Source of the DNA: Alphaproteobacteria bacterium
GTDB lineage: Bacteria; Pseudomonadota; Alphaproteobacteria; JALCBB01
DNA: 53,301 bases
NCBI GenBank assembly: GCA_028066985.1
Contig: JALCBB010000001.1
Span: 1 to 53,301, forward strand
Direction of reading: 5' to 3'
Positions within the stretch are counted from its first letter, which is position 1, and the number at the start of each line of letters is the position of its first letter. A model generated the notes under the pieces. The model made no database searches. It saw only the letters and a list, made by a program, of their open reading frames with translations, and was not told the origin of the DNA. Positions 22,655-53,301 of this stretch are shown one piece after another. Position numbers and translations under genes: made by a program.

Positions 22655-22775
22655 TGGGAGTCTGACTTAGACAGTCACGATAGCCGCTCAAGCGAACCGC
22701 GCCCGCTGATGCCCGCAGGCGCTGCCCGCAGAAAAATTAAAATTTAATTTGACTATTATATATAAGGGGCTGACT
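22626..22775 (-). repeat. Solo arm plus partial AT core, overlapping the lpxC 3' end
   Basis: GGACAACGAAGCAC terminus at 22626, GGCATTAGTGGG 22647-22658, GACTTAGACAGTCACGAT, GCTCAAGCGA, CCCGCTGATGCC 22702-22713, hairpin 22715-22729, then a degenerate core (TTGACTATTATATATAAGGGG). Confidence 0.85.
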
Positions 22776-26044: not shown

Positions 26045-27259
26045 ATGAAAAAGATTTCGGTCAAAGGCTCCGTGGTTGAGTTGGACGGCGACGAGATGAC
26101 GCGCGTCATCTGGCGCGAAATCCGCGAGAAGTTGATCCTGCCGTTTCTGGATGTGGACCTGGTGTATTTTGATCTGGGTCTGCCTTCGCGCGACAAGACC
26201 TCCGACAAGGTGACGCTGGACGCGGCGGCGGCGATACGCGAGCATCGCGTGGGCGTGAAGTGCGCGACGATCACGCCGAACGCCGAGCGTGTTGAAGAGT
26301 TCGGACTCAAGGAGATGTGGCGCTCGCCGAACGGCACGATCCGCAATTATCTGAACGGCACGGTGTTTCGGGAGGCGATTATCTGTCGGAATGTGCCGCG
26401 TCTTGTTCCGAACTGGACGCGTCCGATTATTGTGGCGCGTCATGCGTATGGCGATCAGTATCGCGCGACGGACATGCGGATCGCGGGGCGCGGTGTTTTG
26501 TCTATGCGCTTTGAGCCTGAGAACGGCGGCGAGGCGACGGAGATGGTGGTGCGCGAGTTTCCCGGAGGCGGCGTGGCGCTGTCTATGTTCAACGAGGACG
26601 AGTCTATGGAGGGCTTTGCGCGCGCGTGTTTCAGTTATGCGCTGGAGCGGGGTGTGGATGTGTATTTTTCCACGAAGGACACGATTTTGAAGGTTTATGA
26701 CGGACATTTCCGCGACTGTTTTCAGGCGGTGTTTGACGGCGAGTTCGCGGAGTTGTTTCGGGAGCGCGGGTTGAAGTACGAGCATCGTCTGATTGACGAC
26801 ATGGTTGCGTCCGCGTTGAAGTGGTCTGGCGGTTATTTGTGGGCGTGCAAGAATTATGATGGAGATGTGCAGTCTGACATGATTGCGCAGGGTTTCGGTT
26901 CTTTGGGTCTGATGACATCGGTTTTGCTGACGCCGGACGGACGGGTTGTTGAGGCGGAGGCGGCGCATGGCACGGTGACGCGGCATTTTCGGATGCATGA
27001 GCGCGGCGAGGCGACGAGCACGAATCCGATGGCGACGATTTTCGCGTGGACGCGGGCGTTGGGGTGGCGCGGACGGTTTGACGGCACTCCGGAGGTTGTG
27101 GAGTTTGCGGGGAAGTTGGAGGGTGTGTGTGTGGGCGCGATAGAGTCCGGGAAGATGACGAAGGATCTGGCTTTGCTGGTGGGTCCTGAGCAGGGCTGGA
27201 TGGAGACCTTCGCGTATCTGGACTACCTTGCCGAGCGTTTAAGCGAAGCCCTTAATTAA
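26045..27259 (+). CDS. icd: NADP-dependent isocitrate dehydrogenase (404-aa homodimeric, eukaryote-like subtype)
   Basis: N-terminus MKKISVKGSVVELDGDEMTRVIWREIREKLILPFLDVDL plus NYDGDVQSD and GTVTRH motifs. Confidence 0.95.
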   Translation: MKKISVKGSVVELDGDEMTRVIWREIREKLILPFLDVDLVYFDLGLPSRDKTSDKVTLDAAAAIREHRVGVKCATITPNAERVEEFGLKEMWRSPNGTIRNYLNGTVFREAIICRNVPRLVPNWTRPIIVARHAYGDQYRATDMRIAGRGVLSMRFEPENGGEATEMVVREFPGGGVALSMFNEDESMEGFARACFSYALERGVDVYFSTKDTILKVYDGHFRDCFQAVFDGEFAELFRERGLKYEHRLIDDMVASALKWSGGYLWACKNYDGDVQSDMIAQGFGSLGLMTSVLLTPDGRVVEAEAAHGTVTRHFRMHERGEATSTNPMATIFAWTRALGWRGRFDGTPEVVEFAGKLEGVCVGAIESGKMTKDLALLVGPEQGWMETFAYLDYLAERLSEALN

Positions 27260-27597
27260 AGGGACAAGCGAAGTGCGACCTTTGGCATTAGTGGGCGTTT
27301 GACTAAGACATTCACGATGTCGGCTCAAGCGAAAACACGCCAACTAATGGGTGCGGGCTAGCCCGCAAAAAAATAAATAATAATTTATTGACTATTTAAG
27401 GGGTCAATTAAATAAATTGCTTTCTTATTAATTGACAAATAATGGAATGGTTATTGTCTATTAAATTAATTCTTTTAATTTTATTTTTTTGCAGGCAGCG
27501 CCTGCGGGCATCAGCGGGTATCGCTCGCTTGAGCCGACATCGTGACTAGTCTTAGTCACACGCCCACTAATGCCAAGGATCAGTCTTCGGAGTCGTC
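27260..27597. mobile_element. Composite mosaic palindromic element (MITE-like), between convergent icd and the RND permease
   Basis: Left arm: AGGGACAAGCGAAG, GGCATTAGTGGG 27284-27295, GACTAAGACATTCACGATG, GCTCAAGCGA, hairpin GCGGGCTAGCCCGC 27353-27366. AT core 27367-27490. Right arm: hairpin GCAGGCAGCGCCTGC 27491-27505, GCTTGAGCC, CCCACTAATGCC 27563-27574. Confidence 0.7.
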
Positions 27598-30500
27598 GTC
27601 TTCACGACGGGCGCCGAAAAGACGGGAAAGTAAGGAGCGGCGGGGGCGGGACTCCTCCGATGTCGGCGGGTCGTCTGAGCCAGCCCAACTGAACTCTCCG
27701 CCAGACACAGACACCGATACAGCCTCAGCCGCAACTCCAGCCAAAACACCGCGAGAAGTCGCCTCCAAAACAGCCAGCCGGCGTCCCTCCTTCTTGCTCC
27801 GACGGCGGCGGGCGCGCTCCTCCATGCGTCCCTTGTAAACCAAAGCCGACGGCGTCACCAGCAAAGTCAAAGGCGTCGCGAAGAACAAGCCGAACACAAT
27901 CACCGTGGATAACTGCACCCACCACAACGCGCTCGGCGAATTGTAGGTCACCGTCCGCTCAATGAAGTCAAAGTTCAACTTCAGCACCAGCGGCATCAAA
28001 CCCAGAATCGTCGTGCAAGCCGTCAGCAACACAGGACGCATGCGCTGCGCCCCCGTTCGCAAAATTGCCTCCGTCACATCCAGACCCGAACGCCGCAAAC
28101 CCTCATAGGTGTCAATCAACACAATGTTGTTGTTCACAATAATCCCCGCCAGCGCAATCACACCAATCCCGCACATCACAATCCCGAACGGCTGCCCCGT
28201 TATCAGCAGTCCAAGCATCACACCCGTCGTCGACATGATCACCGCCGACAATATCAATAACGCCGAGAAAAACGAGTTGAACTGCGTCACCAGAATCACA
28301 GCCATCAACGCCATCGCCACCATGAAGGCGCGCACCAGAAACGCCTGCGCCTCCATCTCCTCCACATTCTCGCCCACAAACTCATAACGAACACTCGGAT
28401 CCAGGTCCGCCTCGGCAAGCAAAGCCTCAAGTTCCGCCTGCTTCGCCGACACCAGAAATTCACGACCCGTCGCCGGATCTATGCCGACATTCGCCTCCAC
28501 CGTCACCACACGGCGCTGATCCACACGGCTGAAGACCGTGTCCGCGGGCTTCGTCTCCAGATCCACAAACGACGAAATCGGCACCAGGCCGCTGCGCGTC
28601 TGAATCCGCAACTGCTGCAACTGCGAAGTGTTGCGATAGTCAAGCGGCACGCGCGCGATGATGTCCACCTCCTCGGTCGTGTGATCCGGACGGTAACTCG
28701 CCAGTTTCAAACCGCCCGTGAACATCTCCACATAGTTCCCCACCAGCGACAAATTCGCGCCGAAACGCTCGGCCGCCGTCCGATCGACGATGAGTTCAAC
28801 ACCGAGTTCGGGCGGAGGCAGCGAGTCCTCAATGTCAACCACGCCGCCGGCGCTCTCCATCAGCGCGCGCACCCGCGCCGCCGTCGCCGGCAGAATCTCG
28901 GGCGAATTAGAAGTCAGACGCACCACAAGCGGCTTGCCCTCGCCGCCGGGACCCTCTTCGTCGGCCTGCGGCTCAATGACAATCCCCGCGAGATGCAGGG
29001 TGCGCTCGCGTATCTCTTCCAGAATCACCGTCGCCGGACGGCGCAGGTTGCTGTCCACGAGTTCAATCGTGATGTTGCCGATGATGTCGCTGTCGCTCTG
29101 TCCGGACACCTGACTCACCGTATACACCGACCCCATCTCGCCGTTCTCAATCGCGAGTTTCAGAATTTCAGCCTCGGCTTCGCGCACGAGATGATCGCGC
29201 TCCACCGCCGAAAAATTGCCCTGCGCGCGCACATGAATCACCGCCTGATCCGGCTCGGTCGCCGGGAAAAACTCCGTGCCCTGTCCGGAACGGCTGTAGG
29301 CGAAGAACGAACCCACCAGCACCGCCGCCGCCGCCAGCACCACAAGCGACGGAAAGCGTATCAGTCGCCGCAAAAGACGAATATACGCGCCCGTGAAGCC
29401 CTTCACCGCGTTCAGGTCGCCGCCGCGAGCGATCGCGCGCGCCGTCTTCACGCTCTCGTCCGTGCGCGCCTTGCCGAAAATGGAGCCTATCGTCGGCAGG
29501 AAAATTAGCGCCATGAACAGCGCCGCCGTAAGCACGATGATCTGCGTTATCGGCAGGAACTTCATAAACTCGCCCACCGTGCCGGGCCAGAACGCCAGCG
29601 GCAGAAACGCGCACAGGGTCGTCGCCGTGGACGAGGTGATCGGCCAGAACATTCGGTGCGACGCCTCGCGGAACGCCTCCTCGGCGGTCTTGCCCTCGGA
29701 CATCTTGCGGTCGGCGAACTCGGTCATCACGATGGAGCCGTCAACGAGGAGTCCGACCGACAAAATCAGCGCGAAGAGAACCACGATGTTAAGCGTGAAG
29801 CCGATGCTGCTGATCACCATGAACGCCACGAGCAGCGACGCCGGAATCGCGAAGCCGACCAGCAGCGCCGTGCGGAGTCCGATGGTGGCGATGAGAACAG
29901 TGACCACGAGCAGAATAGATGTCACGACCGAATTGCCGAGGTCGCTGATGATGCGGCGGATGTCGACGGACTCGTCGCCGCTGAAGGCGTAGGTCACGCC
30001 GGGGGGCCACTTTTTGCTCTCCTCTTCAACGACGATCTTCGCCTGGTCGATGGTTTCAATGATGTTCGTGCCGATGCGCTTCGTGATCTCAACGGAGACG
30101 CTGTTCTGTCCGTTGACGCGGACGAAGGAGTCCGGCTCGCGGAAGGTCGGGCGCACGATGGCGATGTCGCCGACGGTGACTTCTCTGTCGCCGTTGACGC
30201 GCAGGGGCAGGTCGATGATTTCTTCGTAGGAGCGGTAGAGACCCGGCACGCGGACGGCGAAGCGTCCGGCGCCTGTATCCAGGGTGCCGGCGGTGATGAC
30301 CTGGTTGTTGCTTGCGACCGCGGCGAGGACGGTGTCGGCTTCAAGTCCGTAGGACTCGAGTTTGACGGGGTCAATGATGACTTCGACCTGTTCGGGCAGG
30401 GTGCCGAAGACATCCGCGGTCAGGACGTTGGTGAGCGACTCCAGCGAGTCGGAGAGGTCTACCGCGACCTGGCGGATCACGCGTTCGGGCAGGCTGCTGG

Positions 30501-30951: not shown

Positions 30952-31228
30952 CCGGTGGGAGCAGCCCCTGGCATTAGCGGGCGAGGAATCCAGGCTTGCC
31001 GTGACGGCCGCTCAAGCGAGCGACGCCCGCTGATGCCCGCGGGCGCTGCCCGCAAAAAATTAAATTTTAATGGACAGACGATGAATGGACGAACCGTCGG
31101 GCGGCTGTCTGTCCATTTATTTTTTTTGTCGGCAGCGCCGACAGGCGACAGTGGGTGCGGCTCGCTTGAGCCGACGCCGTTAACAGTCAATGACACCCCG
31201 CCCACTAATGCCAAGGGCGGTGCCATGG
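30952..31228. mobile_element. Composite palindromic element with a variant core, intercistronic in the RND operon
   Basis: GGCATTAGCGGG 30970-30981, CCCGCTGATGCC 31026-31037, hairpin GCGGGCGCTGCCCGC 31039-31053. The core holds a 9-bp stem TGGACAGAC 31071-31079 / GTCTGTCCA 31107-31115. Second hairpin GTCGGCAGCGCCGAC 31128-31142; CCCACTAATGCC 31201-31212. Confidence 0.7.
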
Positions 31229-34751: not shown

Positions 34752-35025
34752 CTCCCCCGACGACCAGCCCTTGGCATTAGTGGGCGTTTGACTTAGACAG
34801 TCACGATGTTCGCTCAAGCGAGCCGCACCCACTGATGCCCGCAGGCGCTGCCTGCAAAAAAATAAATTAAAGATTAAATGGACTATTTAAGGGGTCAATT
34901 AAATAAATTGTTTTTTTATTTTTTAATTTTTTGCGGGCTAGCCCGCACCCATCTGCTGGCATCGTTCGCTTGAGCGGCTGTTGTGAATGTCTTAGTCAAA
35001 GTCTTACTAATGCCAAAGGCTGTTT
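34752..35025. mobile_element. Composite mosaic palindromic element (short core), between convergent msrP and hemB
   Basis: GGCATTAGTGGG 34773-34784, CCCACTGATGCC 34828-34839, hairpin GCAGGCGCTGCCTGC 34841-34855, core 34856-34932, hairpin GCGGGCTAGCCCGC 34933-34946, CTTACTAATGCC 35003-35014. Confidence 0.7.
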
Positions 35026-36509: not shown

Positions 36510-36840
36510 AAGACAGACGAAGTGCCACATTCGGCATTAGTGGGCGTCTGACTAAGACAGTCACGATGTTTGCTCAAGCGAGCCGCACCCACTGATGCCC
36601 GCAGGCGCTGCCTGCAAAAAAATAAAATTAAAAAGAAATTAATTTATTTAATAGACACCATTAATTGTCTATTAATGAAAAGGCAATTGATTTAATTGAC
36701 CCCTTAAATAGTCAATAAATTATTATTTATTTTTTGCGGGCTAGCCCGCACCCGTCTGCTGGCATCGTTCGCTTGAGCCGACACCTTAAGAGTCTAAAAT
36801 TCTCGCCCACTAATGCCAGAAGCCGCACTTCGCCTGTCTC
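36510..36840. mobile_element. Composite mosaic palindromic element (archetype), between convergent moaE and ychF
   Basis: Terminal inverted repeats AAGACAGACGAAGTGCC... / ...GCACTTCGCCTGTCTC. GGCATTAGTGGG 36533-36544, CCCACTGATGCC 36588-36599, hairpin 36601-36615, AT core 36616-36735, hairpin GCGGGCTAGCCCGC 36736-36749, CCCACTAATGCC 36806-36817. TAATTAA on both flanks. Confidence 0.75.
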
Positions 36841-40321: not shown

Positions 40322-40414
40322 GGGGGTATTGTGGCTGGAGTGGGGGTTTTGTGGAGTTTAGGGGTGGATTTTGGCGAGGTCAAGTGCGACTTTCGGACAA
40401 TTTAGGGACAATTT

Positions 40415-40454
40415 AGAGACAGACGAAGAGCCGCCCTTGGCATTAGTGGGCGCC
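40415..40454. repeat. Isolated element terminus fragment
   Basis: AGAGACAGACGAAGAGCCGCCCTTGGCATTAGTGGGCGCC is the outer ~40 nt of an arm, followed by TTAATTAA (40456-40463) and then a full element. Confidence 0.6.
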
Positions 40455-40463
40455 TTTAATTAA

Positions 40464-40794
40464 GGGACAACGAAGCACGGCCTCTGGCATTAGTGGGAGA
40501 TTGACCAAGACATTCACAATAGTCGCTCAAGCGAGCGATGCCAGCAGATGGGTGCGGGCTAGCCCGCAAAAAAAATTAAAAATTAATTTTGACTATTAAT
40601 GGGGTCAATTAAATAAATTGTCTTTTCATTAATAGACAATTAATGGTGTCTATTAAATAAATTAATTTCTTTTTAATTTTATTTTTTTGCAGGCAGCGCC
40701 TGCGGGCATTAGTGGGCGCGGTTCGCTTGAGCGGCTGTTGTGAATGTCTTGGTCAAACTCCCACTAATGCCAAAGATCGCACTTCGTTTGTCTC
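40464..40794. mobile_element. Composite mosaic palindromic element (inverted relative to 36510-36840), between the prs start and the GNAT stop
   Basis: GGGACAACGAAG end, GGCATTAGTGGG 40486-40497, hairpin GCGGGCTAGCCCGC 40554-40567, AT core 40568-40688, hairpin GCAGGCAGCGCCTGC 40689-40703, CCCACTAATGCC 40760-40771, end CACTTCGTTTGTCTC. Confidence 0.75.
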
Positions 40795-40795
40795 T

Positions 40796-41620: not shown

Positions 41621-42220
41621 ATGAGGGTTCATGAAATTTTCGAGCGCTCGCTTGGACATCAGGAGCGTTTTGGCGGCTTTTTCGTCTTCGGCGGACGCGC
41701 GCCGCGCTCCGAGTATTTGTCGGGGACGATCATTCTGTTTTTGTCCGGATTTTTGTTCAGTCTGCTGGTGCATGTGATTTACACGCGGTGCGGACGGCCT
41801 GTTTTCTGTTCTTATGTGTTGTCGCCGTTGTATGCGTTTAATGTGGCGCTGCTGGTGTTTCTGGTGCTGGCGATGCTGTGTCAGCGTATTCGTCGTTTTC
41901 ACGACTTCGGAGTTTCGGGGTTGTTCGCGATTTTGACGGCGCCGTTTGTGCCGTTTATTTTGTGGGCGTATTTCACCTGGCCGCAATTTTCTCATATTGA
42001 CGGACTGCTTCCTCATGCGCCTTCGTTTTACGAGACGCGTCTGGTGCGCGGGGTGTTGTTTCTGGTGCTTGGGGTGTTTGTGTTGTTGCCGTTTATTATG
42101 CCGGGGAATCGCCGCGGGGAGTATTATGATCTGGAGTGGCAGGCGCGGACGCATCGCCTTGATGTACTTGCGCGCGATCGCCGCACGCAGGAGCGCAGGA
42201 AGGTCCGCGGCAAAACTTGA
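41621..42220 (+). CDS. DUF805 domain-containing inner membrane protein
   Basis: GGRAPRSEY, RIRRFHDFGVSG and PGNRRGEYY resemble the DUF805 (YhaH-like) motifs; 4-5 TM helices. The GA of the TGA stop is the first two bases of the next element. Confidence 0.75.
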   Translation: MRVHEIFERSLGHQERFGGFFVFGGRAPRSEYLSGTIILFLSGFLFSLLVHVIYTRCGRPVFCSYVLSPLYAFNVALLVFLVLAMLCQRIRRFHDFGVSGLFAILTAPFVPFILWAYFTWPQFSHIDGLLPHAPSFYETRLVRGVLFLVLGVFVLLPFIMPGNRRGEYYDLEWQARTHRLDVLARDRRTQERRKVRGKT

Positions 42221-42551
42221 GACAGACGAAGAGCAGTCTGTGGCATTAGTGGGCGTGTGACTAAGACATTCACAACATCCGCTCAAGCGAACCGCGCCCA
42301 CTTAAGCCCGCAGGCGCTGCCTGCAAAAAAATAAAATTAAAAAGAAATTAATTTATTTAATAGACACCATTAATTGTCTATTAATGAAAAGACAATTTAT
42401 TTAATTGACCCCATTAATGGTCAAAATTAATTTTTAATTTTTTTTTGCGGGCTAGCCCGCACCCATCTGCTGGCATCGCTCGCTTGAGCCAACGCCTTAA
42501 AAGTCTGAAATTCTCGCCCGCTAATGCCATAGGCCGCCCTTCGTCTGTCCC
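42219..42551. mobile_element. Composite mosaic palindromic element, between DUF805 and aapJ
   Basis: GAGACAGACGAAG 42219-42231, GGCATTAGTGGG 42242-42253, hairpin 42310-42324, AT core 42325-42446, hairpin GCGGGCTAGCCCGC 42447-42460, CCCGCTAATGCC 42517-42528, end CCTTCGTCTGTCCC. Confidence 0.75.
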
Positions 42552-42747
42552 CTAATTATTAAAGCATCGGCCGGCACAGGGGCGAAAATGCCCCGAAAAC
42601 GCCCGAAAATCCCCCAAATTCAATGCTCCCCAAAGACTCGACAAACCCGCCAACTTCCAGTAAAAATTACCCCGCCGACAGAATCACCCCGTCGGCACAA
42701 GGCAGGACCCGAAATCCGCCAGAATCACAACCCACCAGGAGCCCAAC

Positions 42748-46499: not shown

Positions 46500-47306
<807 letters not shown>

Positions 47307-47325
47307 CGCGCGCGCCCTTTCATCA

Positions 47326-47615
47326 GGGGACAAACGAAGCACGGCCTCTGGCATTAGTGGGAGTTTGACCTAGACAGTCACGATGTTGGCTCAAGCGAAA
47401 CACACCAACTAATGGGTGCGGGCTAGCCCGCAAAAAATAAATAATAATTTATTGACTATTTAAGGGGTCAATTAAATAAATTAATTTCTTTTTAATTTAA
47501 TTTTTTTTGCAGGCAGCGCCTGCGGGCATCAGTGGGCGCTGTTTGCTTGAGCCAACGCTTTAAGAGTCTAAATTTCACGCCCACTAATGCCAAATGCCGC
47601 ACTTTGTCTGTCTCC
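47326..47615. mobile_element. Composite mosaic palindromic element (core lacking the middle module), between aapP and alaX
   Basis: GGGGACAAACGAAG end, GGCATTAGTGGG 47350-47361, hairpin GCGGGCTAGCCCGC 47418-47431, core 47432-47508, hairpin GCAGGCAGCGCCTGC 47509-47523, CCCACTAATGCC 47580-47591, end CACTTTGTCTGTCTCC. Confidence 0.75.
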
Positions 47616-49752: not shown

Positions 49753-50085
49753 AGAGACAACGAAGCACCGCCCCTGGCATTAGTGAGACTTTGACTAAGA
49801 CATTCACGGCGTTGGCTCAAGCAAACAGCGCCAACTAATGCCCGCAGGCGCTGCCTGCAAAAAATAAAATTAAAAGAATTAATTTAATAGACAATAACCA
49901 TTCCATTATTTGTCAATTAATAAGAAAGCAATTTATTTAATTGACCCCTTAAATAGTCAATAAATTATTATTTATTTTTTGCGGGCTAGCCCGCACCCAT
50001 CTGCTGGCATCGCTCGCTTGAGCCAACAGCGTGACTTTCTTAGTCAAACTCCCACTAATGCCAAGGGCCGCACTTCGCTTGTCTC
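49753..50085. mobile_element. Composite mosaic palindromic element, between convergent OsmC-fusion and dehydrogenase genes
   Basis: AGAGACAACGAAG 49753-49765, GGCATTAGTGAG 49776-49787, hairpin GCAGGCGCTGCCTGC 49844-49858, AT core 49859-49980, hairpin GCGGGCTAGCCCGC 49981-49994, CCCACTAATGCC 50051-50062, end CACTTCGCTTGTCTC abutting the stop CTA 50086-50088. Confidence 0.75.
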
Positions 50086-53043: not shown

Positions 53044-53073
53044 GGGGGAGCCTGTTTGGCTCCCCCTTTTTTT
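53044..53073 (+). terminator. Rho-independent terminator of the SBP gene
   Basis: Stem GGGGGAGCC (53044-53052) / GGCTCCCCC (53058-53066), loop TGTTT, then TTTTTTT (53067-53073). Confidence 0.85.
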
Positions 53074-53080
53074 GTCAACG

Positions 53081-53301
53081 AGGGACAACGACGACCCGCC
53101 CTTGGCATTAGTGGGAGATTGACTAAGACATTCACGATGTCGGCTCAAGCGAGCGATGCCGGCAGATGGGTGCGGGCTAGCCCGCAAAAAATAAATAATA
53201 ATTTATTGACTATTTAAGGGGTCAATTAAATCGGCGTGCAGCCTCCGGCATTAGTGGGAGATTGACTAAGACATTCACGATAGCCGCTCAAGCGAACCGC
53301 A
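53081..53301. mobile_element. Composite element interrupted in its core by a second arm; truncated by the window end
   Basis: AGGGACAACGACG end, GGCATTAGTGGG 53104-53115, hairpin GCGGGCTAGCCCGC 53172-53185, core up to ...GGGGTCAATTAAAT (about 53230). A new arm then starts with GGCATTAGTGGG at 53247-53258 in the same orientation. Confidence 0.65.

Follow-up and report, generated by a model that had tools for sequence, protein, structure and literature searches.

Mosaic palindromic repeats with A+T-rich cores built from a directional 44-47-nt unit in the genome of an alphaproteobacterial sponge symbiont

The window, meaning here the whole 53,301-nt stretch of DNA that was analysed, is contig C18 of a 199-contig assembly (2,010,107 bp, 60.6% G+C, 95% complete), in which about 860 repeat arms (859 tallied) and about 450 copies of a 26-nt box are found. 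One composite repeat occupies the whole convergent gap between icd (+ strand, stop codon at 27259) and an RND permease gene (- strand, stop codon at 27580), and forms a single long hairpin when folded as DNA (-91.5 kcal/mol, z = -14). Its A+T-rich centre, 27367-27490, is exactly the interval from hairpin B and its A run to the T run and hairpin A. The two inner hairpins are distinguishable, A being GCAGGCGCTGCCTGC and B being GCGGGCTAGCCCGC. The features of this element and the other cores of the window are collected in Table 1.

Table 1. Composite element at 27255-27600 and A+T-rich cores of the window
Feature	Positions	Strand	Remarks
Composite element: left arm, hairpin B, A+T core, hairpin A, inverted right arm	27255-27600		contains the studied core
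Inner hairpin B, GCGGGCTAGCCCGC, then A run	27353-27366		perfect palindrome
A+T-rich core: A run, unit 1, unit 2, terminal linker, T run	27367-27490	+	
Unit 1 box, TTGACTATTTAAGGGGTCAATTAAAT	27388-27413	+	26 nt
Unit 2, long variant, TTGACAAATAATGGAATGGTTATTGTCTA	27432-27460	+	unit with internal AATGG-type duplication; also at 49888-49916 (-)
Inner hairpin A, GCAGGCAGCGCCTGC	27491-27505		T run before it
Core of the ninth composite, no box	31054-31127		GC-richer stem TGGACAGAC...GTCTGTCCA; inside RND operon
One-unit core, TGGAC-type box 34879-34904	34856-34932	+	between convergent msrP and hemB
Two-unit core, boxes 36646-36671 and 36690-36715	36616-36735	-	
Two-unit core, boxes 40589-40614 and 40633-40658	40568-40688	+	period 44 nt, 2.0 copies
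Two-unit core, boxes 42355-42380 and 42399-42424	42325-42446	-	identical across 8 assemblies
One-unit core, box 47452-47477	47432-47508	+	
Two-unit core, long-variant unit 49888-49916 and box 49935-49960	49859-49980	-	
A run and one box (53206-53231)	53186-53231	+	box joined directly to further direct-orientation arm; starts ~144-nt tandem monomer array

Both ends of the elements carry terminal inverted repeats, TTTAATTARGAGACARACGAAG (terminus logo, 257 arms). Conservation extends about 12 nt past GAGACA, so that TTAATTA belongs to the element, and no clear target-site duplication is seen. Stop codons abut the element terminus. At window positions 47287-47340, the corresponding loci of another strain (L032 and L033) have an ABC ATPase gene that takes its TAA directly from a different element terminus. 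The final four codons of this gene carry three synonymous changes, and 16 nt fewer precede the element.

The initial annotation had placed a TTGAC-N10-GTCAA palindrome at seven positions in the window, and it is present at all of them (27388-27407, 36696-36715, 40589-40608, 42405-42424, 47452-47471, 49941-49960, and 53206-53225); 0.12 copies are expected, and none of 100 shuffles reaches seven. Genome-wide, it occurs 157 times in 2.0 Mb. The TGGAC variant at 34879-34898 and the TAGACA-N8-TGTCTA form at 36652-36671 are likewise where they had been reported, the latter having further copies at 40633-40652 and 42361-42380. A looser motif, T.GAC-N10-GTC.A, which includes the TGGAC copy and the TAGACA...TGTCTA copies, is found 11 times in the window vs. 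0.68 expected. The long variant of a second module is confirmed on both strands (27432-27460, +; 49888-49916, -), as is the absence of that module from 47326-47615, where the core holds a single unit. The claim that a common module occurs in eight of nine composites holds for the 20-26-nt box, which is in eight, but not for the 34-mer that had been quoted, which is in five (three mismatches or fewer). The core within 34752-35025, where the first module had been called inverted, is indeed the sole window core that is turned relative to hairpins A and B.

The conserved entity is a directional 26-nt box, T[A/T/G]GAC-W-ATT-W-A-W-GG-K-GTCAATTAAAT, with 451 copies genome-wide in a relaxed search allowing three mismatches or fewer. 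Its second base is variable (A 43%, T 37%, G 20%), while the mirror base is A in 96%; positions 1 and 18 combine as A-A in 172, G-A in 84, and T-A in 149 boxes. For this reason, only about 35% of boxes are 5+5 palindromes, and TTGAC-N10-GTCAA is roughly one third of the boxes, those with T at the variable second base. The spacer ATTWAWGGK is conserved and asymmetric, and the G and C positions (GAC, GG, GTC) are kept at 94-99% amid near-pure A+T. The proposal of a dimeric regulator site does not fit this pattern: the half-sites are asymmetric, the mirror positions 1/18 are symmetric in 35% of boxes, and the spacer is itself conserved.

Neighboring boxes are co-oriented in 153 cases and opposed in four, and their spacing peaks at 40-49 nt and at 140-145 nt. 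In the core 40568-40688, Tandem Repeats Finder (TRF) gives a period of 44 with 2.0 copies and a weak 22-nt sub-period. Because of the co-orientation, the 40-49-nt spacing, and the TRF period, the "two modules" of the initial annotation are one 44-47-nt unit in diverged copies, which follow each other head to tail and not back-to-back. Rather than a symmetric site, the A+T-rich center is thus an array in which a single directional unit is repeated one to four times head to tail, every 44-47 nt. The relaxed genome search found no boxes outside the repeats, e.g., upstream of a regulator gene.

The 140-145-nt peak corresponds to direct arrays of a monomer of about 144 nt, consisting of arm, hairpin, A run, and box. 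The junction between box and following arm, ...GTCAATTAAAT|CGGCG..., is fixed to the base; it precedes 83 of 859 arms genome-wide and lies at 53231/53232 in the window. The box is thereby shown to be a fixed junction for joining further arms, from which ~144-nt direct arrays as well as palindromic composites result. Direct tandem arrays of this type are found at 53068-53301 in the window and, elsewhere in the assembly, at C60:1-520 and C131:29250-29837. A solo arm lies 3' of lpxC (22737-22775), followed by a degenerate unit, TTGACTATTATATATAAGGGGCTGAC, which is a decayed box with an insertion.

The census of boxes is incomplete, and true copy number and array lengths are underestimated, since for 225 of the 451 boxes a contig end is no more than 300 nt away. 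The repeats are a main cause of assembly fragmentation.

The element could act in RNA, the core forming the loop of an arm-arm hairpin on read-through and the unit hairpins serving as signals for RNase III or other processing. The whole element does fold strongly, and transcripts must enter it, given that stop codons abut its terminus. The stem of the unit, however, is not maintained, its second pair being mismatched in about 65% of boxes, and the commonest box types fold no better than shuffles (-1.2 to -2.3 kcal/mol). Units also occur in both orientations relative to transcription, and the two arms of an element show no co-variation, which makes a role of the core in RNA very improbable. An association between box positions 5 and 14, considered as hairpin covariation, is explained by linked subfamily alleles. 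In an Rfam search at the gathering score, only a tRNA-Ser is found in the window; the element itself gives only sub-threshold, chance-level matches to long-hairpin miRNAs.

The cores had also been proposed to contain back-to-back -35/-10 pairs. The permissive sigma-70 test applied here (at least four of six matches per hexamer and nine of 12 overall, A at -11, T at -7, spacer of 16-18) is passed by 32 of 407 boxes on the forward face (8%) and by 103 of 407 on the reverse face (25%). In the window, the 9-of-12 scan calls one face only, TTGACC-16-AATTAT, in four of the eight cores, which is at odds with pairs facing both ways. A narrower version would have the cores as portable sigma-70 promoters with mainly one face active, firing toward hairpin B and out through the arm, with the layout UP-like AATTTATTTAA, TTGAC(C/A), 16 nt, then AATTAT, TATTTT, or AATAAT. 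Consistent with it, the GTCAA half of the box, which is TTGAC on the reverse face, is kept at 95-99%, and a quarter of the boxes and half of the window cores pass on this face. Correia elements of Neisseria show that repeats can create promoters, but these promoters arise at the ends of the element rather than in its core (PMC2649163). Moreover, the permissive test is failed by 75% of boxes on the reverse face and by 92% on the forward face, and the conserved positions differ from the promoter-critical ones: the -10 partner falls in the least conserved flank, whereas the conserved spacer and TTAAAT tail are not promoter-critical. The tRNA promoters of this genome look different (CTTGnnn-17-TATAnT or GCTATTnT), and prs, which has a core on its 5' side, has a separate promoter-like site between element and gene.

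The position of the cores bears on the same question. Box cores are found in 43 of 151 convergent gaps (28.5%), 29 of 857 tandem gaps (3.4%), and five of 216 divergent gaps (2.3%; chi-square 144), these gap statistics being based on crude gene calls made by the authors. They are thus enriched 8-12 times at convergent 3' ends and rare 5' of genes. The orientation of the units relative to transcription shows no bias to downstream genes in same-strand gaps (12 vs. 17, p = 0.46), and in convergent gaps the two orientations number 20 and 23. The boxless, GC-richer core type, represented by 31054-31127, is relatively commoner in same-strand gene gaps. Given this placement and lack of orientation bias, portable promoters would be an unlikely function of the cores.

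A near IHF-like TCAAnnnnTTA had been noticed in the cores. It exists, on the reverse face of one box subtype only, but the full IHF consensus WATCAANNNNTTR is absent from all cores (no match in 175 cores vs. 7.4 +/- 3.2 in shuffles). Three genes of the HU/IHF family are present in the genome. H-NS and MucR are the normal silencers of spurious AT-rich promoters; ROS_MUCR and Histone_HNS genes were not found in the 95%-complete assembly. The suggestion that the cores are portable outward promoters or nucleoid-protein sites has therefore failed with respect to sigma-70 match, position, orientation, IHF consensus, and MucR/H-NS genes, and the available tests do not support a two-way promoter, a symmetric regulator site, or a nucleoid-protein site. 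The same lack of encoded silencers, which counts in favor of the promoter reading, makes incidental initiation from the conserved TTGAC face plausible, and without H-NS and MucR in the genome, AT-rich DNA that carries TTGAC may well have promoter activity in vivo.

Two further sequence words recur in the cores. The module TTGACTTGCCGGCTATTTTGTGTTAAAT (C22:2579, C32:4039, C38:5211, C39:5216, C41:8489, C178:7174, and others) is a much better sigma-70 match than the box, reading TTGACT, 16 nt, TGn-TTAAAT. CtrA-like TTAA-N7-TTAA sites number about 131 in the 175 cores vs. about 18 in shuffles and lie in the A-side linker, about once per core, for example at 40662-40676 and 47481-47495 in the window, within the A-side linker word TTAATTTCTTTTTAA. 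These CtrA-type sites were set aside as evidence, since they come from this one consensus word in a TTAA-rich repeat and vary between copies; their abundance is probably a by-product of it.

Mosaicism, as the initial annotation had suggested, is strongly supported by strain comparison and by the independence of modules among 92 elements. The genome has 175 fully assembled cores (median 125 nt), 134 of which are flanked by the unlike hairpins A and B in inverted orientation; box cores are placed in the standard orientation relative to the hairpins in 71 cases and turned in 24 (n = 95). Strain comparison used contigs from other sponge individuals in which the flanking proteins are identical; the dataset is probably that of PMC10947273, where the dominant alphaproteobacterium is 'Ca. 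Luteria ianthellae'. Whole units are lost or gained between strains. At core 36616-36735, assembly GCA_028067195.1 is without exactly one 43-nt unit, the rest being identical to the window and to GCA_028066975.1. Whole interiors (mid-arm, hairpins, and core) are replaced or turned between strains as well. In PRJEB9378 contigs, downstream of a DUF805 gene and of an ABC ATPase gene, the flank and outer arm are kept, while the interior is opposite and diverged, and the switch point lies inside a conserved arm box. The interior of the element at core 42325-42446 is in the opposite orientation in contig L024, and that at core 47432-47508 is inverted and diverged in L034.

Within the genome, core, inner arms, and outer arms assort independently. 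The identities of these segments show no correlation with one another (r = -0.05 to 0.14 in 92 elements), and where two cores are at least 95% identical (48 pairs), the identity of the outer arms is 0.81-0.82, no higher than in random pairs. Core 42325-42446 is nearly the reverse complement of core 40568-40688, yet the outer arms differ. The left and right arms of one element are as similar (0.814) as arms of different elements (0.806; p = 0.19). In 28 two-unit elements, the entire core is about 90% conserved, compared with 50-70% for arm linkers, and at the locus 40410-40795 the strain SNPs fall in arms and core linkers, with none in boxes. The composite looks assembled from independent monomers and an exchangeable A+T array. 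The elements 40450-40795 and 42206-42560 lie 1.7 kb apart, inverted around a divergent gene pair; their inner arms, hairpins, and core are near-identical, and their B-side outer arms are quite different.

On balance, the core is probably a slippage-prone minisatellite spacer, shuffled by recombination and tolerated at convergent 3' ends, with no selected role as promoter or operator. The array, prone to slippage, would separate two inverted arm monomers as a spacer or loop that is not palindromic and melts easily. It would be homogenized, exchanged, and flipped via ectopic recombination or gene conversion, and would accumulate where it is least harmful, at the 3' ends of convergent genes. For the neighboring genes it would have no selected promoter or operator role, and any transcription starting within it would be incidental.

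The main facts against a passive spacer are the retention of G and C in the box and the ~90% conservation of the core. A passive spacer should lose the G/C positions of the box, and their retention is therefore a hint of sequence-specific constraint. Gene conversion or a sequence-specific binder would explain both facts; the two-unit cores in particular need either gene conversion, which the spacer reading assumes, or selection. In a rival reading, the 26-nt box would be the recognition site of a sequence-specific DNA-binding protein, either a factor copying or joining arms or a host protein, which in the latter case would have more than 450 sites, mostly at convergent gene ends, acting as roadblocks or chromosome-organizing sites. 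The length and directionality of the motif, its G/C retention, the join of box and arm fixed to the base in 83 cases, and the lack of SNPs in boxes at one well-sampled locus speak for such a protein. Sister cores carry another palindrome resembling a protein site, the parS-like TGTTTCGCGCGAAACA, and the box resembles a miniature of the element termini (TTAAT-AGACA...TGTCT-ATTAA vs. TTTAATTAGGAGACA...TGTCTCCTAATTAAA), although this likeness is weak and limited to TTAAT and GACA. On the other hand, no candidate protein was found and no box lies outside the repeats; the half-sites are asymmetric, the IHF consensus, MucR, and H-NS are absent, the searched transposase families and a serine recombinase were not found, and gene conversion alone could account for the conservation. 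A conserved host factor is unlikely because the motif is absent from the closest relative. A dedicated binding protein would be a minor possibility, somewhat unlikely as matters stand. It is unlikely, too, that the boxes (about one per 4.5 kb, mostly in convergent gaps) would make up a network, carried by the repeat, of protein roadblocks or insulators or of landing pads for the arm-joining machinery, with the parS-like palindromes as a second cargo.

The parS-like 16-mer TGTTTC[A/G]CG[C/T]GAAACA has 135 copies, of which 100 are TGTTTCGCGCGAAACA, clustered on 24 contigs. They lie inside cores of the same family, often flanked by TTAAT/ATTAA (e.g., C7:11097-16605 and C22:2661-8220). The canonical parS, TGTTTCACGTGAAACA, has no copy in the genome, which encodes one ParB (C39:12451-12732).

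The strict form of the box has 235 matches in its own genome and none in 40 relatives, including a complete genome of the same family, and the whole element gives no significant blastn match in the same 40 relatives. The box was not found in JGI metagenomes, and blastn against 72,556 plasmid and 50,697 phage records returned no similarity. By these searches, the repeat family is apparently lineage-specific. The units might be what remains of an iteron-bearing replication origin, from a plasmid or phage, that the repeat captured and amplified, in that the boxes are directly repeated in A+T-rich DNA, have internal dyad symmetry, and show a period of 44 nt with a weak 22-nt sub-period. Such an origin is scarcely probable, given the absence of similarity to the plasmid and phage records and the hundreds of copies dispersed at gene ends.

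Enzymes that could move or rearrange the repeats were also searched for. The genome gave no match to the Y1 RAYT profile (PF01797), whereas the controls matched, and no DDE_Tnp_1 or rve transposase and no serine recombinase or resolvase-family gene was found; two tyrosine recombinases are encoded. A serine invertase as the agent flipping the interiors was rejected, no resolvase-family gene having been found. Twelve hairpin pairs 0.4-6 kb apart, inspected as a possible parent IS or element, enclose by eye ordinary genes (NuoF, ABC ATPase, Fic, and others). The similarity of the box tail TTAAAT to a XerD arm suggested dif/Xer, which was rejected, as there is no dif-like 24-mer at five mismatches or fewer and no CATAA-N6-TTATG geometry in the box. 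SbcD was not found in the genome, so that SbcCD-initiated breakage remains unsupported as a driver of conversion. The transposase families searched, serine recombinase, H-NS, MucR, and SbcD are all undetected in a genome with about 860 palindromic arms.

Several percent of this 2-Mb symbiont genome consists of the repeats with their A+T cores, and assemblies are broken at them. Independent assortment of modules, together with change between sponge individuals, gives a testable picture of BIME-like mosaics built from monomers and a minisatellite, rather than of one transposing unit, in a genome where searches for several transposase families, SbcD, and a xenogeneic silencer found none. Should the box be bound by a protein or work as a promoter, the effect would reach hundreds of convergent gene ends simultaneously.

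The repeat is classed as a mosaic of BIME/MITE type, but is a member of neither the BIME nor the Correia family. BIMEs of enterobacteria and pseudomonads are mosaics of REP hairpins and linker motifs, and in the BIME-1/RIP type an IHF site separates two inverted REPs (PMC3333891, PMC2817692); REPs are GC-rich palindromes of 20-40 nt tagged GTAG or CGTC (PMC3733652). Like BIMEs, the present repeats have a high copy number, are extragenic at gene ends, place two unlike GC-rich hairpins in inverted orientation around a specific linker, and form combinatorial mosaics with tandem and inverted arrangements. Unlike BIMEs, they have arms of about 110 nt with several conserved boxes, in place of 20-40-nt REPs, and hairpins (GCGGGCTAGCCCGC, GCAGGCGCTGCCTGC) without a GTAG or CGTC tag. 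Their linker, 80-130 nt long, is an A+T minisatellite that contains a 26-nt box and lacks the IHF consensus, no RAYT/Y1 transposase was found with them, and the family is restricted to one lineage.

Correia elements (CREE/NEMIS) of Neisseria are 70-157 bp long, with 71 of 113 copies 5' of genes and promoters forming at the element ends, and the roles proposed for them (promoter, IHF, RNase III) match the ideas of the initial annotation (PMC2649163). The present repeats share with CREE the inverted ends around a directional core and the length classes produced by deletions and tandem duplications, but have promoter-like words in the core and not at the ends, most copies between convergent 3' ends, and no IHF consensus. 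With bacterial MITEs (ERIC, RPE, and others; PMC3184786, PMC10969869) they have in common that they are non-coding, carry terminal inverted repeats (TTTAATTARGAGACARACGAAG), occur in hundreds of copies, and are able to supply stop codons. They differ from MITEs in that no parent IS or transposase was found, modules assort independently, and the paired arms of an element are no closer in sequence than arms taken from different elements. Since arms are unmatched within an element and modules are independent, assembly from monomers fits better than the copying of one unit. The ~44-nt head-to-tail units, which differ by whole units in copy number between strains, resemble a minisatellite or VNTR; unlike a VNTR, they form about 200 dispersed short arrays inside a palindromic repeat, and these are inverted and exchanged between loci.
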